A stretch of 64,000 bases of DNA from the NCBI GenBank assembly GCA_963664705.1, contig OY761556.1:5504001-5568000 (forward strand), given 5' to 3'. How positions within the stretch are numbered: position 1 is the first letter of the stretch; each line of letters begins with the position of its first letter. Positions 3,501-46,250 of this stretch are shown here, one piece after another. This stretch comes from Acidobacteriota bacterium. Its GTDB lineage: Bacteria > Acidobacteriota > UBA6911. Under the pieces are notes generated by a model. It ran no database searches, was not told where the DNA came from, and saw only the letters and a list, made by a program, of their open reading frames with translations. The position numbers and the translations under genes were made by a program.

Positions 3501-3755
3501 TGCCCGAAAAACGCCGGCGTCCTGCTCGTTCTTCTGGGCCGGCCGGGCGAGGCCATTCGCATAACTCTGGAAGCGCTAAAAAAGGCCCCCAATGATTCCA
3601 TGCTGCTGGCAAACGTCGCGTCCTGGTATTTCCTCGCAGGAGATTACAATGCAGGCACCGATTTTGCGAAGCGTGCCTATGACCTAATTCCAGGCGCATC
3701 TAAAGGTAGTTTTGCGGATTATAGGGAGAAGCTGCAGAATAAAACGTGGAACTAG
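570..3755 (+). CDS. O-antigen ligase/oligosaccharyltransferase (Wzy_C-type) polytopic membrane protein with C-terminal TPR repeats
   Basis: 1061 aa with many TM helices. Motifs GNPIFLGGYL, TESRGPLLGL, GYGPE and RMHNEIFD are typical of the WaaL/PglL-like family. The last ~270 aa are TPR-like helical repeats. Confidence 0.8.
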   Translation: MNSRLQAFCKTLMEAGWLAAVAIIPLFFNASSIQTFEPGKSFVLKSLALISGAAWLLRRIDEGGLQIGQQFKSLMRKPLVFPVFILAGVYLVSSALSVAPHLSWWGAYYEAQGTATFLCYAVFFLIVLTELRSPDQVNRLQYTIVLTSIPVAGYAVTQRFGGDPFRWEDAFDGRSGGSMGNPIFLGGYLIMVIPLTFCRLIDGLKVFRSVSDRRPVLVRACFCGLALVLQVLALLYTESRGPLLGLAVAGYFCLSIYLILSKSPRQSGAAISVTPVLLGVFIPVLALAAVLLASRFFPGHVFACLEVVVAIIAILFWSIWKTAWGRSWLWLTFLVQPLVLSLAVAVIPANIAFRSQGPIAPFGRITQLSDPGVKYREGLWETGARFLKDGPKADLPDGTPDSYHVLRSVLGYGPECTWFVTNTLATPSLIRYRFQESENRMHNEIFDDLITTGYAGTVAYLILVASAFYYSLQFVGFSFERRARIGFVVLAIIGVLAGLLIPWMAGIPQFIGLGITVGLLAGIFASILWSGIRSQGGVEISARQLLVLGILGALTAHFIEISVAVSVTSTRVYFYLYLALIAVCCSGDWVAQEQPAKRAKAKSLNAEANPWVAFAAIASVIVFVQTWCFTFSPGNETSAIELFSKCWFGTFDGGQTRVHTAVLLMLLTIFAGAALTYAEASKTSAWKSIIGFSALLAGVWLIAGLMSAYFWAGLDNPTPLDYSQHAEARMTLFVFGCLFLIAAVTLILRAAGLPGSKDNSVRSFAVIAGILLIIGAGIGTWRLTLRPAWADIAARTARIYESTGDARSASLLYERAVGLSPQVIQYHFYLGLAQIKAAGFDRIRLDQARATLQEAQALNALDPVVYRTFGTYHLYVGEHSSDPQTRNTEITQAIGYFEKAQKLAPGYPNAYDEKGRCLSLLGSYEQAENVFQRSMQMHPDYWLTYKYRGEMQYRQRNFEAALQSFNKAAGLNPNDLDCPKNAGVLLVLLGRPGEAIRITLEALKKAPNDSMLLANVASWYFLAGDYNAGTDFAKRAYDLIPGASKGSFADYREKLQNKTWN

Positions 3756-3777
3756 GCTTTACCTGCGGGTGATAAAA

Positions 3778-4048
3778 CCTGACTTGACCGAAATAGTAAC
3801 CCCATTAACCGCGAAGACCTCGAAGACCGCAAAGAAAATATTCTTGCGGTTATCGTTCTCGCCAGATCATACGCTGGATTCCATCCTTGAAGCCTCATAC
3901 ATCAGGCACCGCTGAATCGACAATAGGATGCGCAACTTCTTTCCTATCCATCACGCCATCTCATTGCCCGGCAGCAAAATGAGCCAATAGATCTTTGCGG
4001 TCTTCGAGGTCTTCGCGGTTCAAAGAAAAAACTGATAACTTAAAAAAG
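3778..4048 (-). mobile_element. Miniature inverted-repeat element, copy A (decayed GxxExxY cassette)
   Basis: Perfect 29-bp inverted repeats at 3807-3835 (aaccgcgaagacctcgaagaccgcaaaga) and 3992-4020. Block-wise homologous, in reverse orientation, to the four units at 43985-45317. Confidence 0.85.
3850..3951 (-). pseudogene. Internally deleted GxxExxY protein gene remnant
   Basis: The minus strand reads MDRKEVAHPIVDSAV from the ATG at 3951. Shifted frames then give QRCLMYE and FKDGIQRMIWRER*, resembling the N- and C-termini of GxxExxY proteins. Confidence 0.7.
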
Positions 4049-4105
4049 TTATAGAGTGAAGCTGCAGAACAAAACGTGGAACTAGGTTTTACCTGCGGGT
4101 GATAA

Positions 4106-4159
4106 AACGCCACGAATTACGCAGATGCTCTTTGCGAACTCTGCGTAACCCGTGGCGTT
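4106..4159. repeat. Palindromic hairpin (9-mer microrepeat type), probable bidirectional terminator between convergent genes
   Basis: aacgccacgaattacgcaga ... tctgcgtaacccgtggcgtt. Confidence 0.65.
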
Positions 4160-4172
4160 GTTGTTTCAGCCA

Positions 4173-6878
4173 TCAATTCGATTTTGGATCCGGCGTGGGA
4201 GTCTGCTTATTTCCCGGTGCTTCCGTCTTCGGAGTTTTTTCCTTACTGGTGTTTTTCTCCACCTTCTTTTCCTGGTTCGCTCTTTCTTTCCTGGCGTCCT
4301 GGATCTCTTCCGCCCTCTCCTTATCCTTCTCGTTCTGGAATTTGCGGACGTGCTTCAGGGAATCCTTCAACTCCTGAGACATGTCATGAAGTTTTTCCGG
4401 CGTGCGGATCACGTGCGGAGTAATCAGAATGATCAGTTCGGTTCTGGCGGCATTTCGGGTTGTTTGCCCGAATAGGGCTCCCAGGATCGGAATCTGGGAA
4501 AGGAATGGGATCCCGCTCCGCGATTCATTACTGCTGTCACGAATCAACCCCGCGATCGCGACTGTTTCGCCATCTTTTACGGATAGCGTTGTGGATACGC
4601 TTGTTTTGGAAAAACTGGGAGCACTGGTTTCTCCGATAGGAGTGCTGGCTCCCGGGGCGCTGATTTCCTGCACCAGGTCCATGGTAACGGAACCTGAAGC
4701 AGAGATGCGGGGAACCACGATCAGCGTAATCCCGGTGTCGCGGTATTCCACACTGGTCGTGCTGCCACCAACGGAAGGAGTAAAACTCGTGCCCGGATAG
4801 GGTATTTCAGAGCCGACCATGATTTGAGCCTGCTGCCCATCAAGCGCAAGAACGGAGGGCGATTCCAGCACCTTTACTTTTGTTTTCAGTCGAAGCGCTT
4901 CAATGGAGGCCATGATTTCCCGGGCGTTGCCGACAGGAACAAAAGTCTTTGCAGTCAACAAGCCATCCGAAGTGAGATCTCCGGTGGTTAATTTGGTATC
5001 TCCCTTAGCCTGGAGTGCGGCCGCCACGCCAAAATTCAGGCTGTCGGTCAAGTCCACTTCAAAAATTCGTGCATCGATCAATGCCTGCCGAGGCATGACA
5101 TCCATTTTCTTGATGGTTTCAGAGATATAGGCGTAGTCCGCCGAAGTAGCCTGGATAATGAGCGAATTGTTGATGTCATCCACCACCATGCGGACGGTAT
5201 CCTGCAATCCCGTGAGCTGGCCGCCGCGCAAAACCTGGGAGCTGATGGTCCTCTGATTATTGAGTTGAGGCCCGAGTTGCCGGCCGGCGCTGAAAGCGCC
5301 TCCGCCAAATCCTCCGTATCCTCCGCTATATCCCCCCCCATATCCGCTCGATGATCCCATGCTGGAACCGCCACCAAAAAGCCCTGATCCGGACTGGCCC
5401 GCAACCGAACCTCCGCCAGTTGCGAGACTGGTTCCGGAACCAAAGGTGCTCTGGCCGCTTCTGTTTATTCCGGCGGTTCCTGTCGGACTTGTGCTTCCCC
5501 CGCCAGATCCTCCCGCATTGCTGCCCGTGGATCCCTCGCCGCCATACAAAGCCGAAAGCATCATGGCAATATTGGAGGCTGTTGAATTTTCAACAATGTA
5601 TACGTAGGTTTGAATGTTTTTTGCGGAAGACGAGTCGAGCTCCCTAATCCAGCCCTTTACTTCCTCAAGCGCTCTCTTGGAGCTGGTCATCACGAAAATT
5701 GCATTGATGCGATCAAGGGAAACAAAAGAAACGCCAGTGGCCGAATCTTTTGATCCGGATCCATAAAGCTTTTTGAGATCATCGACCACGTCTGATGAAG
5801 AATTGTTTTGGACCTTGACCAGCTCAACCAAATCCGGGTCGAGATAGTTGTTGTCGAGCATCCGGACGATCTGAAGAATCCTGGAAATACTGTCCGTGTA
5901 ATCGGTCAGGATAAGCATATTCAGCCGCTCGAATGGCATGATGGCTCCTCCCTCGGTCATGAACAGTTTTATAGGTTCAATCAGATCCTTTACCGGCACA
6001 TATTCAACACGGATGATATTCGTGGTCAGCCGCGTCGATTTTGGGCTTTCCTCTTTGGCCGCAGGAGCAGGGGCGGTCAGTTTTTCGCCTTTTCTTGCGG
6101 CTTCCTGCTTGGCCAGAGTTTGAAACGTGGAAAGGGTGCCCGGATTTGCTCCCGCCGGTCCCATCGAAGGAGGCATGTTTGCCGGTAATTTGGCCGGTGA
6201 AGATGGCGATTCCTTAACGCCCGTTGAGCCGGGCAAGTACTCGATGATATCGACGCCTCTCTTTAAGGCCGAAGAAATCGGAATGATCTGGTAGATACCC
6301 CCCTGTCGTACCAGGGCGGCATTGTTGTTCTTGAGTATGATATTGAACAGAGGCAGGACGTCATCCTTAGAAAGGGCTTCCGAAGTGAGAAGATTCACGG
6401 TCCCCTTCACTTCCGGATCCACGATCACGGGAGTCAAACCCAGCATGCTGGTAATCTGGTTGACGAAATCATACAGATCCGCGTTCTCGAAATTCAGCTT
6501 TACTTTTCCAGCCTGTGAAGTGGAAGCCGGAACGGCAGGCGCTACCGGAGGGGCTGTGGGTTGCGGCTGCGGCGGCTGAGGCTGAGCCGATTGCGGCTGA
6601 GGCGGTGCCGGCTGTGGAGGCACCGGCTGCGAAGGCACGGGAGTTGCAACCGGGCGTGGCTGCTGGGCCGGCGGGACCTCCGGGTTCGGTTTGGCAATAG
6701 GCTGCACTTGCAGCAGTTGCTTCGAGAGGATTTCCAGTGCGCGCCGCCTGGTTTCGTCTGTACTGGGAAGACGCGCTGGATCCTGGGATGTCCATGCTAT
6801 CGAAGACAAGCCGCTTAAGAACAGCGCGGCTAGAATTACGATGATGGCTTTCCTTAAAATCTTAGTACTCATGGCCAT
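4173..6878 (-). CDS. gspD: Type II secretion secretin GspD
   Basis: Signal peptide, Pro-rich linker, N0 domain (LNFENADL), N3 domain with a Gly/Ser loop, and secretin domain (LSQIPILGALF...RTELIILITPHVI). Start set at the ATG at 6878, which follows the SD gaggagagg. Confidence 0.93.
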   Translation of the reverse strand: MAMSTKILRKAIIVILAALFLSGLSSIAWTSQDPARLPSTDETRRRALEILSKQLLQVQPIAKPNPEVPPAQQPRPVATPVPSQPVPPQPAPPQPQSAQPQPPQPQPTAPPVAPAVPASTSQAGKVKLNFENADLYDFVNQITSMLGLTPVIVDPEVKGTVNLLTSEALSKDDVLPLFNIILKNNNAALVRQGGIYQIIPISSALKRGVDIIEYLPGSTGVKESPSSPAKLPANMPPSMGPAGANPGTLSTFQTLAKQEAARKGEKLTAPAPAAKEESPKSTRLTTNIIRVEYVPVKDLIEPIKLFMTEGGAIMPFERLNMLILTDYTDSISRILQIVRMLDNNYLDPDLVELVKVQNNSSSDVVDDLKKLYGSGSKDSATGVSFVSLDRINAIFVMTSSKRALEEVKGWIRELDSSSAKNIQTYVYIVENSTASNIAMMLSALYGGEGSTGSNAGGSGGGSTSPTGTAGINRSGQSTFGSGTSLATGGGSVAGQSGSGLFGGGSSMGSSSGYGGGYSGGYGGFGGGAFSAGRQLGPQLNNQRTISSQVLRGGQLTGLQDTVRMVVDDINNSLIIQATSADYAYISETIKKMDVMPRQALIDARIFEVDLTDSLNFGVAAALQAKGDTKLTTGDLTSDGLLTAKTFVPVGNAREIMASIEALRLKTKVKVLESPSVLALDGQQAQIMVGSEIPYPGTSFTPSVGGSTTSVEYRDTGITLIVVPRISASGSVTMDLVQEISAPGASTPIGETSAPSFSKTSVSTTLSVKDGETVAIAGLIRDSSNESRSGIPFLSQIPILGALFGQTTRNAARTELIILITPHVIRTPEKLHDMSQELKDSLKHVRKFQNEKDKERAEEIQDARKERANQEKKVEKNTSKEKTPKTEAPGNKQTPTPDPKSN

Positions 6879-6948
6879 GTGGCTTCCTCTCCTCGAGAGT
6901 TTCCGCAAAACTGAATAAACACTGCGGAACCGCAACGGACGATCTGAT

Positions 6949-6974
6949 TGCGTCCAGATAAAACTTTTGTTTCC
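6949..6974 (-). promoter_or_regulatory. Candidate ECF-type promoter upstream of gspD
   Basis: Minus strand GGAAAC-N16-CGCA, resembling the AAC/CGT ECF consensus; single motif only. Confidence 0.25.
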
Positions 6975-7063
6975 ATTAGCCCAAGGTGCGATCAACAACC
7001 TTCAGGCGAGGCGGAATGGCCTCATCGGTAGTGCCGATGATCCTGTCGCTACCGTACAAACAA

Positions 7064-7894
7064 CTAACGCAAGGGACGAACGACATCGCCAAACGGCGTT
7101 CTTATCACACGCGAAGCTCCGGGTTCTGCTGCCGGTGCCGATGGGGCTGCCGCAGGCTGAGCCGCAGCGCCTCGTGAAGCTCCGGCCTGGGCGCCCGGTT
7201 GACTCGCCGATGGCTGACTTGACGATCCGACTGCTGTTACCGACGTTCTTGGAGGCGCAACCACTCCCGTGCCTCCTACGCTGATAGGCGTGCCGCCCAC
7301 GATGCTGCCCTGACCGATCGGTACTACACGAGTCGACAGAATCGGAGTTTTGCCGCCAGTCGCTTTCTTGGCACCTTCGCGCAGAGGGATGACTTCCCGA
7401 CGCGTGCCACTGGTAAGAACAATGTGATCCTGCTGGATTTCGGTAATCGTATAGCCCTGATACACATCGCCGATCTTCTTGAACTGCGCCCGGCGTCCTC
7501 CCCGGTCATTCGGTACCATCGCCGCTCCCGGCTCAATAATGGAAGCTTTCCGCTCATTATCCGCAATCGTTATGCCCACGAGTATGGGTTTGACCGTTAA
7601 CGGCGGAGGTTCCGGCGGAGCGAGATTGACCACGACCTCCTCTTTGCTTCTAATGTCGGCGAATACGTTCTTTTCCGGGATGACCGCGAACTCGGCGGCA
7701 TTGTACTTGGCGGGCGAAAAGGCTTTGGGCGCCTGCTTCTCCGGAAGCATCATCTTTTTGAGATCCGGCGCCGGCTGGATTTTTGCCACGCTGTTTTGAG
7801 CCTTGAAGTGTCGGATCGCCACGCGAAGCTGCCATCCGAGCTCAGCCGTAATCGCAAGCAGGAGTAAGTTAATTGCAATCCATTTTTTCGTCAT
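7064..7894 (-). CDS. GspC/PilP-like T2SS protein
   Basis: N-terminal TM, HR-like domain (LVGITI...KIGDVYQGYTITEI), low-complexity tail; lies between gspM and gspD. Confidence 0.7.
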   Translation of the reverse strand: MTKKWIAINLLLLAITAELGWQLRVAIRHFKAQNSVAKIQPAPDLKKMMLPEKQAPKAFSPAKYNAAEFAVIPEKNVFADIRSKEEVVVNLAPPEPPPLTVKPILVGITIADNERKASIIEPGAAMVPNDRGGRRAQFKKIGDVYQGYTITEIQQDHIVLTSGTRREVIPLREGAKKATGGKTPILSTRVVPIGQGSIVGGTPISVGGTGVVAPPRTSVTAVGSSSQPSASQPGAQAGASRGAAAQPAAAPSAPAAEPGASRVIRTPFGDVVRPLR

Positions 7895-7952
7895 CCTGAC
7901 CTTCTTCGCTCCCGCACCAATGTTTCCGCGGGCGCTGCATCAAAAAACTGAA

Positions 7953-8567
7953 TCATCCGTCAATACGAAGCGCTGCCAAACTTGCCTGGGCAGCAGGCTT
8001 CTCTTTTGGCTTTTCTTCCTGGGTGCGAATAAATCCCGATATAACCATGCTGGGCCGAATCTCGTACCGCTTCTGGATTCGGAGGCTGCTGACAACCAGT
8101 TCATCCACTTTCAGCAGCTTCTCATAGCTTTCAATGGCGGCAAGGAATTGCACCAATTGTTCAGGCGTGCAATTGGCCTCTATCCTGATCGATATTTTCG
8201 TGGCGATGTCAGGGATCTTCCTGTCGGGCTGAATATTGCGCTGAGGAATTTCGACTCCGCTCTGGTCCGCCAGTTCTTTGACCACTCGCTGCAGCTCCGC
8301 TCCGGCCATACTTGCATTCTCGCCGGGCAGGAAATAGGAGAGGTCCTTTTGCAGCTGCTTCTGATACTGATCCAGGCGGGTCTTGTAAACGTCCTCACGG
8401 CTCAACGTATCCCTCTGACTCCGCAGCATTCTCTTTTTCAGTTCCACTTCCTGGGATAGATTCTGACTGTCCGGGATCAGCTCCGTAGCTGCATAGTAGA
8501 TCCCCACCACCAGCAAAGCTCCAATGGCAATCAGAATGGACATTTTTTCTCTCGGAGTCACCTTCAC
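7953..8567 (-). CDS. gspM: Type II secretion GspM/PilO-like protein
   Basis: TPREK-TM-coiled coil-ferredoxin-like region (GAELQ...LVQFLAAIE); operon position. Confidence 0.8.
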   Translation of the reverse strand: MKVTPREKMSILIAIGALLVVGIYYAATELIPDSQNLSQEVELKKRMLRSQRDTLSREDVYKTRLDQYQKQLQKDLSYFLPGENASMAGAELQRVVKELADQSGVEIPQRNIQPDRKIPDIATKISIRIEANCTPEQLVQFLAAIESYEKLLKVDELVVSSLRIQKRYEIRPSMVISGFIRTQEEKPKEKPAAQASLAALRIDG

Positions 8568-8570
8568 GGG

Positions 8571-9971
8571 CTATTTCTCCAATCTTGCTTCAAACGTGAA
8601 ACGCTCTTTGCCTACTGAAGCATCTTTGTAAATGACGCCCTTGGCCACCACATCCTTCAATAACGGCGATTTTTCCAGCTTTGGGATCAGATCCGATGCG
8701 GAGGAACTGAAGCCGGATATCGTAAGCAGTCCGTCCACACATCTGTAGCTCTGCAGATACGTATCGTTTGGAAGGATTGTGGTTAATTCTCTCAGAATCT
8801 CCAGGTTCATATCCCGGCCGCCCAGGAGCTCTTCCATGGACTTAATCTTCTTATTGAGCACGTCCGATTGAGTCCGGTAAGCTTGAACGCGTTCCACCGG
8901 TTTTTTAAGAATTTGGATTTGCCGGTCGAGTTCACTGGCCAGCGCCCGATTCTGCACGGTTCCCCGATACGCCAATGCGCAGAGCAGCCCAATGATGACC
9001 AGGCCGAGGATGGCTGCCGGTATATACCCCCAGCGGCTTTGCTGGATCCTGCGATCCTGCGGCAGAAGATTGATCTTGATCGCGGGGCGCCGGTTCAGTC
9101 CTGTATATGCAAGCCCAAGCGCTGAAGCTGCCTCCTGCATTTTGGGCCTGTTTTCGTTCGGGACATTCAGAGCCGCGATGCAGTTTCGCATCAGGTCGCA
9201 ATCCGGGAGGACTTCCTGAATCTCCGCGCAGGCACTTTCGGAGGATTCCCCTGTGAGAACAATTTTTTCTATGGTTCCTTCCGGGCCAAGACGAATCTTC
9301 GAAGCGGCCTCATCCGTTTCACGCAGGACGATGTCTTGCCATGCCACCTGGTCTGCTCGCGGAACTTCTTTGGAGTAGACCAGCGCGCCCTGCCGCAGCG
9401 CTGCGATCTCGAGCGATGAAGTATTCAGATCGCCAAGAATAAAAGTCTTATCCAGCCGGTTTTTGTCGTTTTGCAAAAGCAGGTTCGCCAACCCCATGGA
9501 GCCACAGATGACGGTTCCCGGCCGGATCCCGACGGAAAGCAGAAAACCCAGGATTTCATCCAGCATCGTTTTGCGAACCATGGCCAGCATGACTGTCAGG
9601 CGTTTGCCGGCTCCGTTGCCGGAGATCAGCGTATAGTCGTGATAAAACTTGTCTTCATCGGTCGGCTCGAAGGATTGGACCTGGTACTGAACAACCTGCT
9701 TCAGATTATCCGCAACCTCAGCGGGTAAATCGAGATAGCGCAGCACGATGTCCTTGCGTGGAATTCCGAGAACAATATTTTCGCGGTTGAGCCCCTTCGA
9801 CTTGAAGAAGGCATGAATCTCGCGCTTGAGATCCTCAGGATTCCGTTGCCGGTAGCCAGCAAAACGCACGAAATGTGTAAACACACTATCCGAATAGTTG
9901 CTTTGCAGCGAGGCAATCAGCAAGTCTTCCCCGCGCAGTTCGACTCCGACACTGGTTTTTAAATAAATCAT
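8571..9971 (-). CDS. gspL: Type II secretion GspL (PilM-PilN-like fusion)
   Basis: Cytoplasmic actin-like domain, INLLP motif, TM, PilN-like periplasmic domain. Confidence 0.82.
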   Translation of the reverse strand: MIYLKTSVGVELRGEDLLIASLQSNYSDSVFTHFVRFAGYRQRNPEDLKREIHAFFKSKGLNRENIVLGIPRKDIVLRYLDLPAEVADNLKQVVQYQVQSFEPTDEDKFYHDYTLISGNGAGKRLTVMLAMVRKTMLDEILGFLLSVGIRPGTVICGSMGLANLLLQNDKNRLDKTFILGDLNTSSLEIAALRQGALVYSKEVPRADQVAWQDIVLRETDEAASKIRLGPEGTIEKIVLTGESSESACAEIQEVLPDCDLMRNCIAALNVPNENRPKMQEAASALGLAYTGLNRRPAIKINLLPQDRRIQQSRWGYIPAAILGLVIIGLLCALAYRGTVQNRALASELDRQIQILKKPVERVQAYRTQSDVLNKKIKSMEELLGGRDMNLEILRELTTILPNDTYLQSYRCVDGLLTISGFSSSASDLIPKLEKSPLLKDVVAKGVIYKDASVGKERFTFEARLEK

Positions 9972-11047
9972 GGCGTCATGCCTTCATAATCCGGAACGTT
10001 TTCGTTCCAGTACAGGGTTCGATACTGCCTGTTCGGAACAGGATCAATATTGATGATACATCGAATAACACGGCGCACTTTCGAATTCAGGGCGTGCGCC
10101 GAAGCCGTGAGCGTATAAAAGCCGGATTGGTTTGTGGTCAGATAGGGCTGAGTCTTGGCATCCAGACTGATCCCGAGGTCGCGGGATATGTCCAGTATCG
10201 TTTTAAAAGGTTTGACATGACGTCGGTCATAGATAGCCCTTGCCGCGTCCGCTGTCATCATCGGAACAGACTGCAATACGGCCAACGGTGCATAATTGAC
10301 GTTCACCTGAGGGTTGGTTGAATAAACCGTCAGGTATCGCGATAGCCCATAGCGATAGGTTATTGCACCGTTTAAATCCTTTTCCGGATGCCCGTAAAAG
10401 TACTCCGGCGTAATGCCGCGGATAAGCAGCAGTTCTTCAATCGTGTCAATCCGTCCATTCTTGGCTTTGTAGGGAGGGTTCAGGGACTGATAGTAATCGT
10501 TCTCAGCCCCATTGATTCGATGTGCGGAATCCGCGTCGCGCCAATCGAGAATGGAATCCGCAATGATGTCCGAATCGGGCTTTTTGATTCCGCACGCCTC
10601 GACCAGGCTTCGCAACTGTTCCTCGTTGACACTGTTTACCGGGAGTTTTCCGGATTCGTCCTGCAACTCCACCCGATATTCCCCACCGCCCAATGTGCCT
10701 GTAATCACCCCCTGATCCAAAGGATCGGGCGTATCCTGCAATTCCACCTGCCGCAAACCGGCGGTGCTCTTTCGCACCATCAGCTGATATACGGTGGCGG
10801 CGATTCCAGCCCTTGCCACAAAATAAGAGTCCTCCAGGGACTGAGCATTCCGGGCCGCTGCCACTTCCACAAAAGTCTCTCTCGAAAAACTAAAGGCAAT
10901 AACGGTTAGCGCCGTCAGGATCCATAGCAGAGCGATCAGGATGACTCCATGTTCAGTCTTCGGATGCCGGATAGCAGTCGCCCGCGGGATGCCACCGCCG
11001 ACCGCCTTTTCACCGACAATGAATGACTGACGCCTAACGAACTTCAT
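9968..11047 (-). CDS. gspK: Minor pseudopilin GspK
   Basis: G/VILIALLW leader, DESGKLPVN, IADSILDWRDAD, YKAKNG, VNVNYAP. Confidence 0.92.
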   Translation of the reverse strand: MKFVRRQSFIVGEKAVGGGIPRATAIRHPKTEHGVILIALLWILTALTVIAFSFSRETFVEVAAARNAQSLEDSYFVARAGIAATVYQLMVRKSTAGLRQVELQDTPDPLDQGVITGTLGGGEYRVELQDESGKLPVNSVNEEQLRSLVEACGIKKPDSDIIADSILDWRDADSAHRINGAENDYYQSLNPPYKAKNGRIDTIEELLLIRGITPEYFYGHPEKDLNGAITYRYGLSRYLTVYSTNPQVNVNYAPLAVLQSVPMMTADAARAIYDRRHVKPFKTILDISRDLGISLDAKTQPYLTTNQSGFYTLTASAHALNSKVRRVIRCIINIDPVPNRQYRTLYWNENVPDYEGMTP

Positions 11048-11831
11048 TGCCTCTTCCTCTGATCCCCAAGGGATTGTTCAACTGATTGATCCCAAACGGA
11101 TTAATAAAAGTAGTCCGCCAATCATAAGGTTCCGCTTTGAGAGGCACGACCATATGACGGTTCAAATTGTTTCCACGCGGGTCACGCGATATCATGGTAA
11201 ACGATACCGCCAGCGGCAACCGGCCGATCTTCTGGCCGTCCCATTCCTGTACCCATTGCGATCCGTTATTGTTGTCTCCCGGATCGAAATACTCCAAAAG
11301 GCAACTGGAGAGATTCTCAAAAATCGGAACAGCGCGGGAACCGGATACGGATATTCCCTCTTCAGGCGTATCTCCCAGATACCGGGCTTCCCTTTCCACC
11401 AGTGCATACTCGCCGTTGTGGTCCTGGTCGACGTCATACGACACCATCGTGAGCCCCGGGCTTACCTGGAACTGTAGGGAGTTCAAACTGATAAACTGAA
11501 CGCCGTCCTTTTTCCCGCTAAATAGCAGTGCCCCGGTTCCGCCCGGTTGCTGGGAATCCATCTCAAGCAGCGCATAGGCTGAAGCCATCTGTTTTCTGAC
11601 CAGGTTCAGAATGCTTCGGTGCCGCTGATTGGCATCCATGAATTCCGTACCTCTTGACCAGGACCGGATGCTGACTCGAAACACCGCCCACAAGGCGACC
11701 GCCATGATGGCCACAAGCGTTACCGCCACCAGCATCTCGAGCAGCGTGAATCCGGCCATTCCCCGCGAGTCGGATCTGTGGATCCGCCCGGTTCGAATGA
11801 CAGATTCCTGGGTTTTGGCTGCACTGATCAT
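11034..11831 (-). CDS. gspJ: Minor pseudopilin GspJ
   Basis: Prepilin site G/FTLLEMLVA; size and position; C-terminal W...LPLAV. Confidence 0.85.
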   Translation of the reverse strand: MISAAKTQESVIRTGRIHRSDSRGMAGFTLLEMLVAVTLVAIMAVALWAVFRVSIRSWSRGTEFMDANQRHRSILNLVRKQMASAYALLEMDSQQPGGTGALLFSGKKDGVQFISLNSLQFQVSPGLTMVSYDVDQDHNGEYALVEREARYLGDTPEEGISVSGSRAVPIFENLSSCLLEYFDPGDNNNGSQWVQEWDGQKIGRLPLAVSFTMISRDPRGNNLNRHMVVPLKAEPYDWRTTFINPFGINQLNNPLGIRGRGNEVR

Positions 11832-12807: not shown

Positions 12808-12813
12808 AATCCC

Positions 12814-19926: not shown

Positions 19927-20031
19927 ATCGGGGACGTCCCACCCATTCGCCGGTTTTTTGAGCGGTGTATCGAATGGAGTCCCGCCTATGCACCCCGTAA
20001 AAAGCAGGTGAATGAGCGGGACGTCCCCGAT
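19927..20031. repeat. REP-like inverted repeat pair between secA and guaB
   Basis: atcggggacgtcccacccattcgcc ... ggtgaatgagcgggacgtccccgat. Confidence 0.7.
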
Positions 20032-35250: not shown

Positions 35251-35276
35251 TTCTATTTTCAGCTTTCGATTACTTC

Positions 35277-37796: not shown

Positions 37797-37950
37797 GCAC
37801 GGAACAACTCTATGGGGAGTCCCCGGTACCACCGGTTCCTTTAAGAAAGGCAGCGATCGGCTAACTGTCTCCATAAAGGGACACTGGAGGCTGCTTTCTT
37901 TTTAGGATATTATTTTTCCTCACTTCGATGGCAAGGTAAAAAGAGGAAAT

Positions 37951-38421
37951 ATGGCGACGATTTCTGCAGAACTGAAGCAATTGCTGGCCCGCACGAACAT
38001 GACTGTTCTTCCCGAAGATTACGTAATTGTTTATTTGCCCATTGGAGTTAAGGCAATTCCAGGAGAATGGTTTCGTCCCTCGACGACACGCTTCGCTGCG
38101 GTTATTCAAGAACCCAAACTGATCACCATGGTGGTTCCCAGGCAGAAGTGGATGAGAATGCAGAACATGTTTGAAAAGTTCGATCTGAACGGCCCCTATA
38201 AGGTCATCAGCTTCGACGTGAAGCTCTCGCTTGTGGCCAGCGGCTACATGGCCGCCATCGGATCCGTTCTCAGAGAGTCGAAGATCAGCGCCTTGCCGAT
38301 CTCTTCCTTCAAACATGATCACATCATCGTTCCGAAGGCCGAGCTGCCGCGCGCCGTCAAGGTCCTGAGAAGTTTCCTGGACAGCTGCAAGGTCAAAAAT
38401 GCTTCACGCGCGAAGAAATAA
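37951..38421 (+). CDS. ACT-domain protein (ACT_7/CASTOR-like)
   Basis: GYMAAIGSVLRESKISALPISSFKHDHIIVP. Confidence 0.75.
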   Translation: MATISAELKQLLARTNMTVLPEDYVIVYLPIGVKAIPGEWFRPSTTRFAAVIQEPKLITMVVPRQKWMRMQNMFEKFDLNGPYKVISFDVKLSLVASGYMAAIGSVLRESKISALPISSFKHDHIIVPKAELPRAVKVLRSFLDSCKVKNASRAKK

Positions 38422-38462
38422 TGCAGCCGTGTTTGAGAAACACACGGGGTTGATCGCTCGTG

Positions 38463-39266
38463 TCATTTTGCGGATGATTTGTCCCATCGCTGAATGAAGT
38501 CCAGGAGGAAGTTCTCCGAGCCCGCCCCGGAAGCCCGCTGCCCCAGATCCTCCCTTGTTGCGGCAACAGCCGCTTCATAGGCGGTTTTGTCCATCTTGCC
38601 ACGCAACAGTTCAACCCGCAGGAACAGCAGAAATGTCTGCAGCACATCCGTCATGCAGTATTGATTGACTTCTTTCTGGCGTCCCTGGCGGAAAAGATAT
38701 TCTACATCGTCTCCGGCGATGGAATATTTGCCCGGCAGGCCGGTCAGCTTTGCCCAGAGATTCAGGGAATTTCTGGCGTACGCTCCGAAATTTGACAGGT
38801 AATCGCACAGGTCAATGTGAAAGGTATCATTGTACCGGTTGCCACGATACGTGCTCCGGCTTTCGCCGGCAGCAAAGTAGTGCGGCAGGGACATGCCATG
38901 CTTCAAAGCCCGGCTTTCGAGAACCGGCAAATCAAATGTGCGTCCGTTAAAAGTCACCAGCGTGCGGCAGTGCTCGAATGTTTCCCAGAATTTCGAAACC
39001 ATCTCCGCTTCGGAAAACCGGTCAGCCCCGAAACATCCCAGCGACTTGATCCGGTATTTGTCGTCGGCATGCAGTGTGGAAATCGCAATTGGAATATGGA
39101 ACGGGATCGGGAAGAAGTCACTCTGCTGCCCGCTTCGCTCCAAGATCTGGTCCCGGGCTGCGTCGTAAGCCTGATCCAGCGTCTGATTGTCTTCAGGATC
39201 GTAAACTTGCTTTACCAATTCCTTGTCGACGATGGTTTCGATGTCAAACACCAGGTAGTTGGTCAT
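38463..39266 (-). CDS. Predicted 3'-5' exonuclease, PolB-exonuclease-like (DEDDy)
   Basis: VFDIET, TFNGRTFDLPVL, HIDL, YCMTDV. Confidence 0.88.
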   Translation of the reverse strand: MTNYLVFDIETIVDKELVKQVYDPEDNQTLDQAYDAARDQILERSGQQSDFFPIPFHIPIAISTLHADDKYRIKSLGCFGADRFSEAEMVSKFWETFEHCRTLVTFNGRTFDLPVLESRALKHGMSLPHYFAAGESRSTYRGNRYNDTFHIDLCDYLSNFGAYARNSLNLWAKLTGLPGKYSIAGDDVEYLFRQGRQKEVNQYCMTDVLQTFLLFLRVELLRGKMDKTAYEAAVAATREDLGQRASGAGSENFLLDFIQRWDKSSAK

Positions 39267-39401
39267 CAGTTCTTCCCGCTGCGCGCGCTTTTTGGAAATC
39301 CATTTTGACCGAGGTTTCCCGCCAATGTCAAACAGCGCTTTTCTTTCCTATTATTCTATATTCCCCTAAACCCCTAAGACCCTAATATTTATGGGGTTTT
39401 T

Positions 39402-39449
39402 GCGCTAGATATTGTGGTAATGGGCATTCGGGACTACAATATGTAGTTA
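39402..39449 (+). promoter_or_regulatory. Tandem NrdR boxes
   Basis: gcgCTAgATaTtGtgg (39402-39417) and ctaCaAtATgTaGtta (39434-39449) fit acaCwAtATaTwGtgt with 32-bp spacing, upstream of nrdJ. Confidence 0.8.
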
Positions 39450-39456
39450 TATTTAC

Positions 39457-39485
39457 TTGACAGTCCTGCGCGGTTCGTGTAAAAA
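39457..39485 (+). promoter_or_regulatory. Candidate sigma70 promoter for nrdJ
   Basis: TTGACA-N17-TAAAAA. Confidence 0.5.
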
Positions 39486-39572
39486 CCCGACATCCGCATT
39501 TTAGGACAACTTAGCCCTATTGAGATCTTTTATCACAATAGTTTCTCGGTTAGCAGTAGGAGGCATTCTCTC

Positions 39573-42311
39573 ATGAGCAGTAATAAATCGTTGCCAATGG
39601 AAAGTGTTGCTTCGGTGGCTTTAGCAGCAGAACGGCCCAATGGCGGTGGCGGGTTGGAATTTGCACGCCAGTTTACGAGGGAAGGTTGCAGTCCCTACGA
39701 AGAGATTGAGTGGGAAATCCGTTCGGCTTCCATCACCAATGAAAAAGGGGAATCTATCTTTCGGCAGGATGGGGTAGAGATTCCCAAGGCCTGGTCGCAG
39801 ACCGCGGCGAACATCGTGGTTTCAAAATACTTTCATGGGCAGGTTGGCACTCCGCAGAGAGAACGGAGTGTACGGCAGCTGGTGGAACGCGTGGTTCGTA
39901 CCATGACGGAGTGGGGCCTTCGAGGCGGCTATTTCGCCACGGCTGCGGATGCCGCAACGTTTCATGACGAGCTGGCATTTCTGCTGCTGAATCAATATGC
40001 CTCGTTTAACTCGCCGGTATGGTTCAACTGCGGAATTGAGGCGAATCCGCAGTGCTCTGCGTGCTTCATCAACTCCGTTGAAGATACGATGGATTCCATT
40101 CTGAGCCTTGCGGCCACCGAGGGGCGGCTATTCAAGTACGGCTCGGGCACCGGCACCAATTTTTCCTCTCTTCGATCTTCCCGTGCGAAGCTCTCCGGTG
40201 GGGGCATTGCTTCCGGTCCGGTCAGCTTTATGAAGGGCTTTGATGCCTTTGCCGGAGTGATCAAGAGTGGTGGCAAGACGCGGCGCGCGGCCAAGATGGT
40301 GATTCTGAATATCGACCACCCGGATATTGTTGAGTTTATCGAATGCAAGGCCAAAGAAGAGAAAAAGGCCTGGACGCTGATGGAGGCGGGCTACGATGGC
40401 TCCGTTGATGGCGAAGCTTATGGGAGCATCTTCTTCCAGAATGCAAACAACAGCGTACGCGTTAACGATGAATTCATGAAGGCGGTCGAGCAGGATGGAA
40501 TCTGGGCCATCAAGGAACGGCCGAACTATGAAATCACTGGGACTTATCAAGCCAAAGAGCTGATGCGGAAGATCGCCGAATCGTGCCATACGTGCGGCGA
40601 CCCCGGGATGCAGTATGATTCGACGATCAACCGCTGGCATACATGCAAGAACACGGCGCGGATCAATGCGTCGAATCCCTGCTCCGAATACATGTTCCTT
40701 GATGATTCGGCCTGCAACCTGGCTTCCTTCAACCTCCTGAAATTTGCGGATGTCCAGGGGAATTTTGATGTTGCTGCTTTCCGGAAGGCCGTGGACATCA
40801 TGATTACCGCCCAGGAAATCATCATCGACAATGCGAGCTATCCGACCGAAAAGATCGGGCAGAACAGCCGCGATTACCGCACGCTGGGCCTTGGATACGC
40901 CAACCTGGGTGCCTTGTTGATGTACAACGGATTGCCCTACGACAGTGATCCGGGCAGGGATTTCGCCGCCGCGATTACCGCCGTCATGACTGGTGAAGCG
41001 TATCTGCAGTCGGCGCGCATTGCGGCCAAGCAGGGCGCCTTCGTGGGATATGCCTCGAACCGCGAGCCGTTCCTGGAAGTCATGCGGATGCACCGGTCGG
41101 CGCTGCAGAACATCAACGGAAACAACGTCCCGTCGGATCTGATGCGGGCCGCCCAGGAATGCTGGGACCTCGTTGTGCTTGAAGGGACCGTCCATGGTTT
41201 CCGCAACGCGCAGACCACGGTGCTTGCGCCCACTGGCACGATCGGGTTCATGATGGATTGCGACACTACAGGGGTTGAGCCGGATCTTGCGCTCGTGAAG
41301 TTCAAGAAGCTGGTCGGCGGCGGCATGATGAAAATCGTCAATAACACCGTTCCGTCAGCCCTCGCAAAGCTGGGATACAACGACCAGGAAGTTCCTGCGA
41401 TCATGAAGTTCATCGATGAAAACGGCACCATTGAAGGAGCGCCCTGGGTAAAGGCCGAGCATCTGCCCGCGTTTGACTGTGCTTTCAAACCGCAGCGTGG
41501 GACACGGTCCATCCACTACATGGGCCATATCAAGATGATGAGCGCCGTGCAACCGTTCATTTCCGGCGCCATATCCAAAACTGTAAACGTACCCGAAAAC
41601 ATCTCGGTTGAAGAGATTACCGACCTGTACATGCAGGCCTGGAGAATGGGCGTCAAAGCAATTGCCATTTATCGCGACAATTCGAAAAAGACGCAGCCTT
41701 TAAACCTGGTGCAGGATACAAAAGCCAAAGACGCCAAAAAACAGGAGAAGACTCCGGGCTTCAAACCCGTACGTCGAAAACTCCCGGCCGAACGAAGGGC
41801 TATGACGCACAAGTTCAGCATTGCGGGGCATGAAGGTTACATCACCGTGGGTATGTACGATGATGGTCAGCCCGGCGAAATTTTCCTGGTCATGGCTAAA
41901 GAGGGAAGTGCGATTTCGGGATTGATGGATTCGTTTGCCACCGCCATTTCACTGGCGTTGCAGTACGGCGTGCCTTTGCGCGTGCTGATCGATAAGTTCT
42001 CGCATGTCCGATTTGAGCCTTCCGGACATACCGGCAACGCAGCGGTGCCTTTTGCAAAATCGATCGTCGACTATATATTCCGGTGGCTGGCCTCCAAGTT
42101 CCTCCCGATCGATGAACAGTTCCAGGCCGGTGTCCATGTTGAAAATGTGGAGGCGAAGGAGCCCGATGCAAGCCCGGCTCCCTTAAATGATTTCAAATCG
42201 ATGTATGCTTTAGATGATGCTCCGACTTGTGCCGGATGCGGGAGCATCATGGTTCGTAATGGTTCCTGCTATAAGTGCATGAACTGCGGCGAAACCAGCG
42301 GTTGCTCATAA
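39573..42311 (+). CDS. nrdJ: Class II (adenosylcobalamin) ribonucleotide reductase
   Basis: FNSPVWFN, CSACFINSV, NASNPCSEY, LAPTGTIG, TSCPD-like domain and C-terminal CxxC-CxxC. Confidence 0.96.
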   Translation: MSSNKSLPMESVASVALAAERPNGGGGLEFARQFTREGCSPYEEIEWEIRSASITNEKGESIFRQDGVEIPKAWSQTAANIVVSKYFHGQVGTPQRERSVRQLVERVVRTMTEWGLRGGYFATAADAATFHDELAFLLLNQYASFNSPVWFNCGIEANPQCSACFINSVEDTMDSILSLAATEGRLFKYGSGTGTNFSSLRSSRAKLSGGGIASGPVSFMKGFDAFAGVIKSGGKTRRAAKMVILNIDHPDIVEFIECKAKEEKKAWTLMEAGYDGSVDGEAYGSIFFQNANNSVRVNDEFMKAVEQDGIWAIKERPNYEITGTYQAKELMRKIAESCHTCGDPGMQYDSTINRWHTCKNTARINASNPCSEYMFLDDSACNLASFNLLKFADVQGNFDVAAFRKAVDIMITAQEIIIDNASYPTEKIGQNSRDYRTLGLGYANLGALLMYNGLPYDSDPGRDFAAAITAVMTGEAYLQSARIAAKQGAFVGYASNREPFLEVMRMHRSALQNINGNNVPSDLMRAAQECWDLVVLEGTVHGFRNAQTTVLAPTGTIGFMMDCDTTGVEPDLALVKFKKLVGGGMMKIVNNTVPSALAKLGYNDQEVPAIMKFIDENGTIEGAPWVKAEHLPAFDCAFKPQRGTRSIHYMGHIKMMSAVQPFISGAISKTVNVPENISVEEITDLYMQAWRMGVKAIAIYRDNSKKTQPLNLVQDTKAKDAKKQEKTPGFKPVRRKLPAERRAMTHKFSIAGHEGYITVGMYDDGQPGEIFLVMAKEGSAISGLMDSFATAISLALQYGVPLRVLIDKFSHVRFEPSGHTGNAAVPFAKSIVDYIFRWLASKFLPIDEQFQAGVHVENVEAKEPDASPAPLNDFKSMYALDDAPTCAGCGSIMVRNGSCYKCMNCGETSGCS

Positions 42312-42317
42312 AGGTGG

Positions 42318-42467
42318 GAGCCAGAAGTCAGGAGTCGGGAAAAGTTGAGCCTAACCTTTTTACTCAGTGTTCCCGATTATCTGTATTGGTATTATGAATG
42401 TAGTCTGAATGCTGGAGGCGGCGTTGATCGGTTGCTTCTGACTCTGACTCCTGATTTCTGACTTCTG
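42318..42467. repeat. Heptamer-microrepeat inverted pair between nrdJ and malQ
   Basis: gagccagaagtcaggagtcggg ... ttctgactctgactcctgatttctgacttctg. Confidence 0.65.
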
Positions 42468-42472
42468 CCTTT

Positions 42473-43930
42473 ATGAGAAAAAGCGGAATTTTGCTGCACC
42501 CCACTTCGCTGCCCGGCGAATTGGGTGTCGGTGATCTGGGGAAATGGGCTTACCGTTTTGTCGACTTCCTGGCGGACAGTGGACAGAAACTCTGGCAGAT
42601 TCTGCCGCTTGGCCCGCCGGGCATGGGATACTCCCCTTACCAGGCCTATTCCAGCCATGCCGGTAACCCGTTGTTGATCAGTATTCCGCCCCTGATAGAG
42701 CAGGATCTGCTGCCACCGGAAGTGTTACAGAACCTTCCGCCGCGACCCGACTCCAAAGTCGATTTTGATGCCGTTATTCCCTTCAAAGAGAAGATTCTAA
42801 AGCAGGCTGCCCGCAATTTTTTCTCAGGGAAAGGCATTGCCTGGCAACGCGAGTTTGCCGAATTCTGCGCGCAAGCCTGTTCATGGTTGGATCCCTATGC
42901 GGAATTTTCCGCTTTGAAGCGGGCCAATTTCGGAGTTGCCTGGACACAATGGGATTCCGCAATAAAATCCGATCCTCAGGACGAACTGGATGAGAAGTTT
43001 ATCCAGTTCCTGTTTTTCCGGCAGTGGACTTCGCTGAAGAGGTACTGCAACGATCGGGGCATTGCCATAATCGGAGACATTCCCATCTTCATTGCGCATG
43101 ACAGTTCCGATGTGCGAGCCAACCCTGGATTGTTCGATCTGGATGAAGAGTACAATCCGAGAAATGTCGCCGGTGTTCCCCCGGACTATTTTAGTAAAAC
43201 CGGTCAGCGTTGGGGCAATCCTCTATACCGCTGGGAAGCGATGGAAAAAACCGGCTTCCGCTGGTGGATCGGCCGTATCGAATCCATGCTGAATATGGTG
43301 GATGTAATTCGCCTGGATCACTTCCGCGGATTTGAAAAATTCTGGGAAATTCCGGCTGAATCAGAAACGGCCGTGGGCGGCCACTGGGTGGAGGGTCCCG
43401 GCGATCGCCTGTTCAAGGCCCTCTCCGAAGCGCTGGGAACGCTGCCCTTCATTGCGGAGGATCTGGGGTATATCACTCCGGAGGTGCATCAATTGCGGGA
43501 TCGCTGGGGCTTTCCCGGTATGCGGGTCCTGCAGTTCGCGTTCGGTGACGAATCGCGGGATAATCCGCACAAGCCCTATAATTATGTTCAGAATTGTGTC
43601 GCCTATACCGGCACGCATGATAACGATACCACCGGCGGATGGTTTGCCTCCCAAAGCAGCCAGTTGCGCTACGAACAGGAAAACGCGTTGAGATACATGG
43701 GAAGCGACGGCAGAGACCCGGTGTCGGATTTGATCCGGCTACTCATGGCGTCGGTTGCCGATACCGTGATTGTCCCGATGCAGGATTACCTGGGGCTGGG
43801 TACGGAAGCGCGCATGAATGTGCCGGCGACAACAGGAAACAACTGGAATTGGCGCATGCGCGAAGATCAACTGCGTCCCGATCTCGCAGCCAGACTGCGA
43901 GAGCTAAACCGCACCTACGGCCGCTCCTGA
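42473..43930 (+). CDS. malQ: 4-alpha-glucanotransferase (GH77)
   Basis: GILLHPTSLP, AGVPPDYFS, RLDHFRGF, AEDLG, YTGTHDNDT. Confidence 0.97.
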   Translation: MRKSGILLHPTSLPGELGVGDLGKWAYRFVDFLADSGQKLWQILPLGPPGMGYSPYQAYSSHAGNPLLISIPPLIEQDLLPPEVLQNLPPRPDSKVDFDAVIPFKEKILKQAARNFFSGKGIAWQREFAEFCAQACSWLDPYAEFSALKRANFGVAWTQWDSAIKSDPQDELDEKFIQFLFFRQWTSLKRYCNDRGIAIIGDIPIFIAHDSSDVRANPGLFDLDEEYNPRNVAGVPPDYFSKTGQRWGNPLYRWEAMEKTGFRWWIGRIESMLNMVDVIRLDHFRGFEKFWEIPAESETAVGGHWVEGPGDRLFKALSEALGTLPFIAEDLGYITPEVHQLRDRWGFPGMRVLQFAFGDESRDNPHKPYNYVQNCVAYTGTHDNDTTGGWFASQSSQLRYEQENALRYMGSDGRDPVSDLIRLLMASVADTVIVPMQDYLGLGTEARMNVPATTGNNWNWRMREDQLRPDLAARLRELNRTYGRS

Positions 43931-43984
43931 CTTCTGTCTCCTGCTACTAATACACCGGGAAACACAACTCTCGATATTTCGGGA

Positions 43985-45317
43985 TCAAATCAGGTCCCAT
44001 AAATAAATGGTGTTGATTAGTTTTTATGTTTGAACCGCGAAGACCTCGAAGACCGCAAAGATTTATTGGCTCATTTTGCGGTGGGAAAGAAGTTGCGCAT
44101 CATATTGTCGATTCAGCGGTGGCAATCCATACAGCGCCAGATTGCTGGAGGCCGTTTCTCGGCGGTGCCTGATCTGGCGAGAACGATAACCGTAAAACCT
44201 GAAAAAATATTTTCCTTCGCGGTCTTCGAGGTCTTGGCGGTTAATGGGATTACTAATTCGGTCAAGTCAGAAAAAATATTTTCCTTCGTGCCTTGCGCTG
44301 CTAATACACCGGGAAACACAACTCTCGATATTTCGGGATCAAATCAGGTCCCATAAATAAATGGTGTTGATTAGTTTTTATGTTTGAACCGCGAAGACCT
44401 CGAAGACCGCAAAGATCTTTTGGCTCATTTTGCGGTGGGAAAGAAGTTGCGCATCATATTGTCGATTCAGCGGTGGCAATCCATACAGCGCCAGATTGCT
44501 GGAGGCCGTTTCTCGGCGGTGCCTGATCTGGCGAGAACGATAACCGTAAAACCTGAAAAAATATTTTCCTTCGCGGTCTTCGAGGTCTTGGCGGTTAATG
44601 GGATTACTAATTCGGTCAAGTCAGGTGCCTTGCGCTGCTAATACACCGGGAAACACAACTCTCGATATTTCGGGATCAAATCAGGTCCCATAAATAAATG
44701 GTGTTGATTAGTTTTTATGTTTGAACCGCGAAGACCTCGAAGACCTCGAAGACCGCAAAGATCTTTTGGCTCATTTTGCGGTGGGAAAGAAGTTGCGCAT
44801 CATATTGTCGATTCAGCGGTGGCAATCCATACAGCGCCAGATTGCTGGAGGCCGTTTCTCAGCGGTGCCTGATCTGGCGAGAACGATAACCGTAAAACCT
44901 GAAAAAATATTTTCCTTCGCGGTCTTCGAGGTCTTGGCGGTTAATGGGATTACTAATTCGGTCAAGTCAGGTGCCTTGCGCTGCTAATACACCGGGAAAC
45001 ACAACTCTCGATATTTCGGGATCAAATCAGGTCCCATAAATAAATGGTGTTGATTAGTTTTTATGTTTGAACCGCGAAGACCTCGAAGACCTCGAAGACC
45101 GCAAAGATCTTTTGGCTCATTTTGCGGTGGGAAAGAAGTTGCGCATCATATTGTCGATTCAGCGGTGGCAATCCATACAGCGCCAGATTGCTGGAGGCCG
45201 TTTCTCAGCGGTGCCTGATCTGGCGAGAACGATAACCGTAAAACCTGAAAAAATATTTTCCTTCGCGGTCTTCGAGGTCTTGGCGGTTAATGGGATTACT
45301 AATTCGGTCAAGTCAGG
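43985..45317 (+). mobile_element. Miniature inverted-repeat element copies B1-B4 (43985-44288, 44339-44625, 44676-44971, 45022-45317)
   Basis: Each copy has aaccgcgaagacctcgaagaccgcaaag ... cttcgcggtcttcgaggtcttggcggtt and ends tcggtcaagtcag(g); homologous to copy A. Confidence 0.85.
44086..44189 (+). pseudogene. GxxExxY gene remnant (repeated at 44440-44543, 44786-44889 and 45132-45235)
   Basis: KEVAHHIVDSAVAIHTAP, then a frameshift to (G)LLEAVS(R/Q)RCL, fused to IWRER*; resembles the recalled pattern IVD-A--IH--LGPGLLESVY--CL. Confidence 0.75.
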
Positions 45318-45329
45318 TGCCTCGCGCTG

Positions 45330-46250
45330 CTAATACACCGGGAAACACAACTCTCGATATTTCGGGACACGACCCTTGACTACATCGAAGTATAGAGTGC
45401 GCAGCTTGCCTGTGATCGGCCCCATCTGTCCGGATCCGATCGGTCGATGATCGACCTTCGTAATCGCCGCTATCTGGACGCCGGTTCCACAGAAGAAGAT
45501 CTCATCCGCCAGGTAGATTTCGGTTCGATCGATAGGCCGCTCCACCACCTCAACACCCAGTTCATCGCGAAGGAGCATCATAACCGTTCGTCGGGTGATC
45601 CCTTCAAGAATGTTGTCTGTAACGGGTGGTGTGCACACAACTCCCTTGCGGACCATGAAGAAATTCTCCGCGGACCCCTCGGCTACATGCCCGTCCTGAT
45701 TCAAAACGATGGCTTCGTCATACCCTGATCGCTGCGCATCGGTTTTGACAAAGGCCGAGTTTACATAGGATCCGGCGATCTTGCCGCGTGCGGGGATCAT
45801 ATTGTCATCGATGCGCCTCCAGGAGGATATCGTGACGTGGCTCCCTTCTTCATTTTCCACGTAGGATCCAAAGGGGATCGCTATCATCGATATTTCCGGA
45901 TGGAGATCGTGGAGACGGACTCCAATGATTTCATCCGAGAAGTAAGCGATTGGCCGGATGTAGCAGTCGGTGCGGTAGTTTTCTGCCTTGATCAGATCCG
46001 CGAGATAACCCGTGAGCTGAGCTTCCGAATAGGGGAACTGCATTAACAACAGCTTTGCAGATTCCAGGAAACGACGGAAATGGTCCTGCGGCCTGAAAAG
46101 GAATAGCTGGTTTTCCGCTTCATTCCAGTATCCACGCAAACCGCCGAATACACCCGTTCCATAGTTAAGAGTATGGGTCAGAACACCAATTTTAGCTTCG
46201 CTATATGGAACAATCCGCCCTTTGAAAAATGCAAAATGAGGCAGAGTCAT
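45330..46250 (-). CDS. ilvE: Branched-chain amino acid aminotransferase
   Basis: LNYGTGVFGGLR, KIAGSYVNS, EGSAENFF, ILEGITR; ATG at 46250 follows the SD aaggagg. Confidence 0.95.
   Translation of the reverse strand: MTLPHFAFFKGRIVPYSEAKIGVLTHTLNYGTGVFGGLRGYWNEAENQLFLFRPQDHFRRFLESAKLLLMQFPYSEAQLTGYLADLIKAENYRTDCYIRPIAYFSDEIIGVRLHDLHPEISMIAIPFGSYVENEEGSHVTISSWRRIDDNMIPARGKIAGSYVNSAFVKTDAQRSGYDEAIVLNQDGHVAEGSAENFFMVRKGVVCTPPVTDNILEGITRRTVMMLLRDELGVEVVERPIDRTEIYLADEIFFCGTGVQIAAITKVDHRPIGSGQMGPITGKLRTLYFDVVKGRVPKYRELCFPVY

Follow-up and report, generated by a model that had tools for sequence, protein, structure and literature searches.

Short GxxExxY repeats in an Acidobacteriota genome are probably deleted copies of a composite with IS1634-family ends

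Introduction

Which enzyme moves the short hairpin repeats that follow two genes in the genome of an Acidobacteriota bacterium (UBA6911; G000 below)? In the window, which is the whole 64,000-nt stretch of G000 analysed here, five copies of one repeat occupy two gene junctions, and each copy holds a remnant of a GxxExxY nuclease gene between inverted arms. A sequence-only reading had taken them for miniatures of autonomous selfish units, made of a GxxExxY gene and its inverted repeats, that are mobilised in trans. We found that the copies in the window are internally deleted and left-truncated. They are probably derived from a composite of about 700 bp, in which ends of an IS1634-family insertion sequence (IS) stand around an arm-GxxExxY-arm cassette; the composite would be moved in trans by an IS1634-family transposase, with the nuclease as a conserved passenger.

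GxxExxY proteins (PDDEXK_3; PF13366, TIGR04256) are described as a family of unknown function with multiple transfers, and the family's entry in PMC3424549, in its accessible part, does not mention arms, miniatures or an association with IS elements. Target duplications of 5-6 bp are typical of the IS1634 family, and those of IS1549 and IS1634 are variable, from 8 to 514 bp; the accessible sections of PMC2266710 state that no mechanism had been proposed for them by 2008. Movement by an IS1634-family transposase would account for the long and variable duplications around the copies studied here. Window positions refer to the 64,000-nt stretch and C1 positions to the whole contig of G000; G002, G005, G014, G018 and G021 are relatives.

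Results

The copies in the window

One copy lies at 3778-4048 and four units stand in tandem between malQ and ilvE (Table 1). The 29-bp arms are a perfect inversion in the first copy and reach 93% over 28 bp in the other copies. The first copy also folds strongly (z = -7.25), and none of 200 shuffled sequences folded as well. An end shared by all copies lies 22 bp past the stop of the gene at 570-3755 and 12 bp past the ilvE stop, and both junctions are convergent. The flanking duplications are 59-60 bp long (93% identical) at the first locus and 50 bp at malQ-ilvE, where a 37-bp core is present five times; each holds the 3' end of the gene faced by the shared end, and in a control with random flanks only 1 of 300 pairs reached a score of 40. 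The remnant interiors align with residues of about 1-35 and 112-126 of an intact GxxExxY gene, and the catalytic middle is gone. In all five units the left IS end is absent, so that none of them has a terminal inverted repeat at both ends, as full-length composites and two duplication-flanked loci of G000 do.

The element, arms, shared end, duplications and GxxExxY remnants were thus found where the sequence-only reading had placed them. Its five miniature derivatives are real as copies, and they represent two insertion sites only. Tandem amplification of a single insertion is the likely origin of the four units at malQ-ilvE, judging from their sequences, because the units alternate with copies of a single 50-bp duplication and because units 3 and 4 have an additional 9-mer in common.

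An assembly artefact was considered and rejected as unlikely. Contigs from public runs span both flanks of the first locus with no differences, and the repeat units of the array have 3-4 times the depth of the unique flanks, which argues against such an artefact; the best runs may come from the source sample itself. Among the contigs from public runs, no joint that skips the element was seen.

Empty malQ-ilvE junctions, which the sequence-only reading had proposed to look for, exist. Among 19 loci examined, 6 had one gene only, and the element was absent from all 13 same-genus genomes in which both genes are adjacent. These 13 junctions belong to different species, and several hold other hairpin repeats. 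At the first locus, the gene at 570-3755 was not found beside gspD in any of 15 relatives' loci; therefore, the gspD junction is not orthologous. The element was absent after gspD in 14 of these 15 relatives, and G005 has its own full composite just past the gene (L198, on G005:C5). This composite is independent and has a different duplication, which suggests that the site after gspD is a favoured insertion site.

The shared end belongs to an IS1634-family element

The shared end was also found away from the arms. It bounds a 1642-bp element (C1:6057793-6059434) that encodes an intact, stop-free transposase of 490 aa (NF033559, 326 bits; cut-off 100), the sole match to that protein in G000, and in full-length copies the left module aligns with the left end of this IS. 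These sequence matches identify the shared end as the right end of an IS1634-family IS with one intact copy in the genome, outside the window. The right-end pattern was present in 9 of 30 genomes of the genus, and the reversed control gave none.

Eighteen loci in G000 carry this right end. The base just outside it is A at 13 of them (p = 1.6e-5 against genome composition), and nine have an outer duplication of 50-121 bp that starts 0-1 nt from the right end. The expectation that other copies would also have flanking duplications was therefore borne out at half of these loci.

Which part makes the duplication

To separate the IS ends from the GxxExxY cassette, we compared elements that have one without the other. 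For autonomous relatives of the IS, 22 related loci were fetched; both ends were located in 13, one further copy made 14, and two were dropped because their flanks were too short. Six of the 12 measured copies have flush duplications (36, 81, 91, 177, 222 and 294 bp) and six have none. In addition, at a bare 116-bp IS miniature without GxxExxY sequence (C1:2537516-2537631), a duplication begins at the right end and runs for 48 bp or more. The converse set comprised 60 GxxExxY loci from the genus, class and phylum, of which 59 were analysed after one with a short flank was dropped. Two of the 59 carry the IS end. Seven of the other 57 have a repeat score of at least 36; six of these were read by judgement as internal, arm-related or coding repeats, and one candidate (L256) is left, which gives a plausible target duplication at no more than 1 of 57 loci. 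Because it is present at the bare miniature and nearly absent at GxxExxY loci without IS ends, the duplication tracks the IS ends, not the cassette.

As an observation apart, in three of the six duplication-free autonomous copies (L081, which is C1:6057793-6059434, L116 and L121) one flank repeats the other in imperfect inverted form (scores 17-23; 95th percentile of the null, 12), as if the IS had inserted into a hairpin loop.

These results bear on the idea that the arm-GxxExxY-arm unit is autonomous, that its nuclease mobilises the miniatures in trans and makes the duplications, and that the IS end is incidental. The association of gene and arms speaks for it: arms flank 42 of the 59 GxxExxY loci and none of 300 random spans. 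A TIGR04256 profile search found three intact GxxExxY genes in G000, each with its own arms; the one at C1:2163575-2163925 lies between the same arms as the window copies, just as the sequence-only reading had anticipated, and the other two lie between arms of other short repeats. One of the three is followed by two deleted tandem copies. Furthermore, a cassette without IS ends, both arms of which have changed together, occupies one orthologous junction in G000, G014 and G002 and is absent in G018. However, the precise junction is always the IS end and never an arm, and cassettes without IS ends lack duplications. The modelled protein also has no strand-transfer domain, and presence at the same junction in three species is inheritance, not movement. 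We therefore regard this idea as very unlikely. The shared end and the long duplication, which had been read as the footprint of GxxExxY mobility, both belong to an IS1634-family element outside the window, and the case for autonomous units is weakened by long duplications at no more than 1 of 57 GxxExxY loci without IS ends. Mobilisation of the derivatives in trans is still likely, by an IS1634-family transposase; no result shows the nuclease mobilising anything.

Two details of these cassettes may be recorded. At C1:4472240-4473170, the intact gene with its own arms and the two deleted tandem copies have no IS ends. At the junction of the three-species cassette (L208, L209, L210 and L219), the arm sequence changed on both sides together, the gene of L210 has a stop near its end, and the junction is empty in G018.

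Full-length composites in relatives

The composite is preserved in full in other genomes. In G021, a 699-bp element (L138) consists of an IS miniature of 116 bp with a degenerate right end of its own, a spacer of 40 bp, an arm, an intact GxxExxY gene, the second arm and the IS right end, with a duplication on either side. The same plan was found in G005 and in a metagenome contig. Duplications around composites with both ends in other genomes measure 52 bp (L138), 51 bp (L154), 36 bp (L156), 60 bp (L137) and 74 bp (L135). In G005, the left flanks of three copies match right flanks on other contigs, and we read these three pairs as mis-joined repeat copies. The leaders of the window copies are truncated forms of the left part of this full composite.

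In a tree of 59 GxxExxY proteins, the five composite genes formed a single clade (100/99), which is consistent with one capture; arm motifs labelled by eye cluster loosely on the same tree. A precedent for two miniatures flanking one cargo is present in G000, where two IS miniatures sandwich another hairpin cargo (C1:6304351-6304832). As a separate observation, this sandwich and another IS1634-ended miniature (C1:1230860-1231101) carry a different hairpin repeat that has more than 100 matches in the genome. Between the repeats of the other hairpin cargo, a crude open reading frame (ORF) check revealed no gene for a tyrosine transposase.

The GxxExxY nuclease

The cargo is a member of PF13366/TIGR04256 (134 bits; cut-off 35), and GxxExxY was found in 54 of 151 genomes drawn from the phylum. 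Residues E27, E77, K79 and Q91 are invariant among 24 aligned proteins, D67 and Y95 nearly so, and the E-D-ExK-QxxxY pattern is conserved. An alignment-based structure model (pLDDT 95.8) predicts a bare, minimal PD-(D/E)XK domain. Its best structural matches have Z of 7-8, for instance BpuSI (8.1; root-mean-square deviation 2.9 over 95 aligned residues) and Cas4 SSO0001 (7.4); each is middling taken singly, and most of the top matches have the same fold. There was no transposase or integrase in the top 50 matches, and a search of solved structures with the nuclease sequence gave no match. An Rfam search of three loci also returned nothing, and a promoter and terminator scan of the full composite was not above shuffled sequences.

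Several findings weigh against movement by the IS1634-family transposase with the nuclease as a passenger. First, the gene is under purifying selection in the composite clade: the ratio of nonsynonymous to synonymous substitution rates (dN/dS; Nei-Gojobori script, six intact composite-clade genes) is 0.09-0.23 in 14 between-genome pairs with dS of 0.21-0.60. The sole within-genome pair gave 0.80 on 7 changes. Second, G000 has 28 arm-bearing loci and about 7 arm-less IS miniatures, which a purely neutral passenger does not explain. Third, the autonomous IS in G000 has no duplication, and a search with its transposase found no close relative in the draft genomes G005 and G021, which hold composites. 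Fourth, among the 18 right-end loci of G000, a duplication is lacking at 6, and at another 3 the repeat stands between tandem copies only. Fifth, the full left end is kept at 2 of the 9 duplication-flanked loci, which is unexpected under strict two-ended transposition. Finally, about 10 loci have no clear right end and another 3' tail; most of them keep remnants of the left end or of an inner end, and three have duplications of 24, 42 and about 65 bp.

The gene is conserved inside the composite clade, and the modelled protein is a minimal PD-(D/E)XK domain whose motifs are intact. The nuclease therefore probably has a function, which may serve the host, its own cassette or the composite. In addition, the cassette itself may be selfish or may act as a helper, given purifying selection on the gene and arms at so many loci.

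The same evidence could favour cooperation, in which the IS1634 transposase makes the right-end junction and GxxExxY acts on the arms or on the donor or target site, so that copying or retention is aided and arm-bearing miniatures are favoured. The low dN/dS between genomes, the conserved catalytic residues, the retention of both arms in nearly all miniatures and the left junctions, which are ragged even where duplications are 97-98% identical, would all fit. However, autonomous IS copies and the bare miniature give the same duplications without a neighbouring GxxExxY, and hairpin cargo of an unrelated kind is found in the IS miniature too, which may mean that any hairpin is favoured. The host or the cassette's own cycle could also be the source of the selection on the gene. 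We consider such cooperation unlikely, and carriage by an IS1634-family transposase with a conserved passenger remains our preferred explanation.

Junctions and distribution in G000

Leaders elsewhere in G000 are 28-91 nt long, some with short overlaps with the target: 12 nt at the C1:1525931 locus and 1-2 nt at three others. At C1:4792236 the first duplication is cut to 12 nt; therefore, later deletion does occur. No second copy of the 62 extra bases at C1:270880 was found in G000, and hence no sign of a carried-along flank. The overlaps, together with the frequent tandem arrays and internal deletions, would agree with host repair alone, that is, hairpin DNA copied by template switching at short homologies with no dedicated enzyme. 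However, the right junction is precise to the base at the IS terminus over many loci and genomes, and it has the A bias; we thus consider host repair alone extremely unlikely.

Arm searches of G000 gave 28 loci, several of them tandem arrays; 17 of the 28 lie above 4.6 Mb, which is the final third of the contig. Sixteen lie at convergent junctions, compared with 19% of large gaps (p = 7e-6), a count that rests on crude ORF calls with a few neighbours probably miscalled. The placement between convergent genes proposed by the sequence-only reading is thus true of both window loci, and for the family it is a tendency and no rule. Two features likely let insertions persist at gene 3' ends: the duplication leaves the gene intact, and the hairpin may serve as a terminator.

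Features of the window

Table 1. Positions, strands and nature of the repeat parts and neighbouring genes in the window.
Position	Strand	Feature	Method
3719..3777	.	Flanking duplication that abuts the IS right end; carries the final 37 nt of gene 570-3755, with its stop	sequence comparison
3778..3803	-	IS1634-family right end; 26/28 terminal bases as in autonomous IS C1:6057793-6059434	sequence comparison
3807..3835	+	Inverted arm of 9-mers, downstream of GxxExxY remnant	repeat search
3853..3951	-	GxxExxY remnant with ~20 codons of the start and ~13 of the end; catalytic middle deleted	
3992..4020	-	Inverted arm, upstream of GxxExxY remnant	repeat search
4021..4048	-	Truncated leader, 28 nt; IS left end absent	
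4049..4108	.	Duplication, second copy (93%)	
43935..43984	.	ilvE 3'-end 50-bp duplication, first copy	
43985..44271	+	Unit 1: leader (48 nt, including a degenerate inner IS right end), GxxExxY remnant between two arms, and IS right end; then 17-nt local duplication	
44339..44625	+	Unit 2; preceded by duplication copy 44289-44338	
44676..44971	+	Unit 3; one additional 9-mer in left arm; preceded by duplication copy 44626-44675	
45022..45317	+	Unit 4; one additional 9-mer; preceded by duplication copy 44972-45021	
45318..45367	.	ilvE duplication, last copy, flush with the IS right end; contains ilvE stop	
570..3755	+	Neighbour: large TPR protein; its IctB-like match is weak (below cut-off)	
4173..6998	-	Neighbour: gspD secretin	
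42473..43930	+	Neighbour: malQ	
45330..46271	-	Neighbour: ilvE	

The window holds other hairpins. A separate one lies at 4109-4160, between the duplication and the gspD stop, with arms that resemble those of another GxxExxY clade; the 3' side of gspD in relatives has different hairpins. A 44-bp inverted repeat pair stands between two genes at 19927-20031, and a similar repeat fills the malQ-ilvE junction of G002. In addition, 63411-63444 is a single copy of the abundant hairpin repeat that serves as IS cargo elsewhere in G000.

Discussion

We propose the following history for the family. An IS miniature of about 115 bp would have arisen by joining of the left to the right end at a motif common to both. 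Two miniatures may then have come to stand around one nuclease cassette, perhaps when the cassette was copied as a long target duplication; such capture needs about 560 bp, which is above the longest duplication measured (294 bp). The inner ends would have decayed, so that the unit could move whole, and the interior between the hairpin arms would have been deleted repeatedly. The transposase would join the right end precisely, mostly beside A, and the often ragged left junction may be made separately or eroded later. Finally, slippage or unequal recombination between duplications could give tandem arrays, for example the four units at malQ-ilvE.

Other mobile elements share parts of this plan. 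IS605-type elements have a conserved passenger nuclease, TnpB, in a mobile element moved by another enzyme. TnpB, which is RNA-guided, has its transposase in cis, whereas the transposase here would act in trans and no Rfam family matched the composite.

IS1549 and IS1634 resemble our elements in transposase family, in short ends that start with C and have YT at positions 7-8, and in long, variable, flush duplications, as far as the accessible text of PMC2266710 describes them. However, there is no transposase gene in the elements studied here, their cargo is a nuclease cassette, and the left end is often missing where the duplication is kept. TIMEs and mosaic non-autonomous transposons, in the portion of PMC4133298 that is accessible, are likewise miniatures that carry captured DNA as a composite with the transposase in trans; TIMEs have Tn3-derived 38-bp ends and fixed 5-6 bp duplications, whereas here the ends are of IS1634 type, the duplications are 29-121 bp and there is one specific conserved cargo. 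REPtrons and TIRtrons, with REP and REPIN sequences, also place a small DNA-cutting gene between inverted repeats and leave gene-less derivatives near gene ends (PMC3733652, in its accessible part). Our family has this layout, with repeats around the gene and dispersed gene-less derivatives. However, RAYT and TIRYT are HUH tyrosine transposases in the same source, whereas GxxExxY (TIGR04256) is a predicted PD-(D/E)XK nuclease, and the HUH Y1 tyrosine transposase that defines REPtrons is not the gene found between the repeats here. A literature search that covered few subscription papers and no supplements found no description of GxxExxY arms or of an IS1634-GxxExxY composite; the passage on GxxExxY in 10.1101/2021.01.26.428298 deals with matters other than arms.

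A bolder possibility is that arm-GxxExxY-arm cassettes are an undescribed selfish nuclease class, which this lineage fused with IS1634 ends into a two-enzyme mobile system; we hold this to be rather unlikely. In such a system, one end would be set by the transposase, the nuclease would act on the arms or on the target, and completion of the other junction would be a separate step. If true, this reading would assign a function to GxxExxY and account for the length and variability of IS1634-type duplications.

The composite ties together two things that have so far lacked an explanation, the long variable duplications of IS1549 and IS1634 and the function of GxxExxY. The family supplies natural junctions by the dozen, precise at the right end and ragged on the left side, together with a matching intact transposase. 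In addition, the composite suggests a route by which elements with long duplications capture adjacent DNA. Furthermore, the arms, together with the conservation of the gene in a mobile composite, provide a concrete candidate substrate for the widespread GxxExxY proteins.

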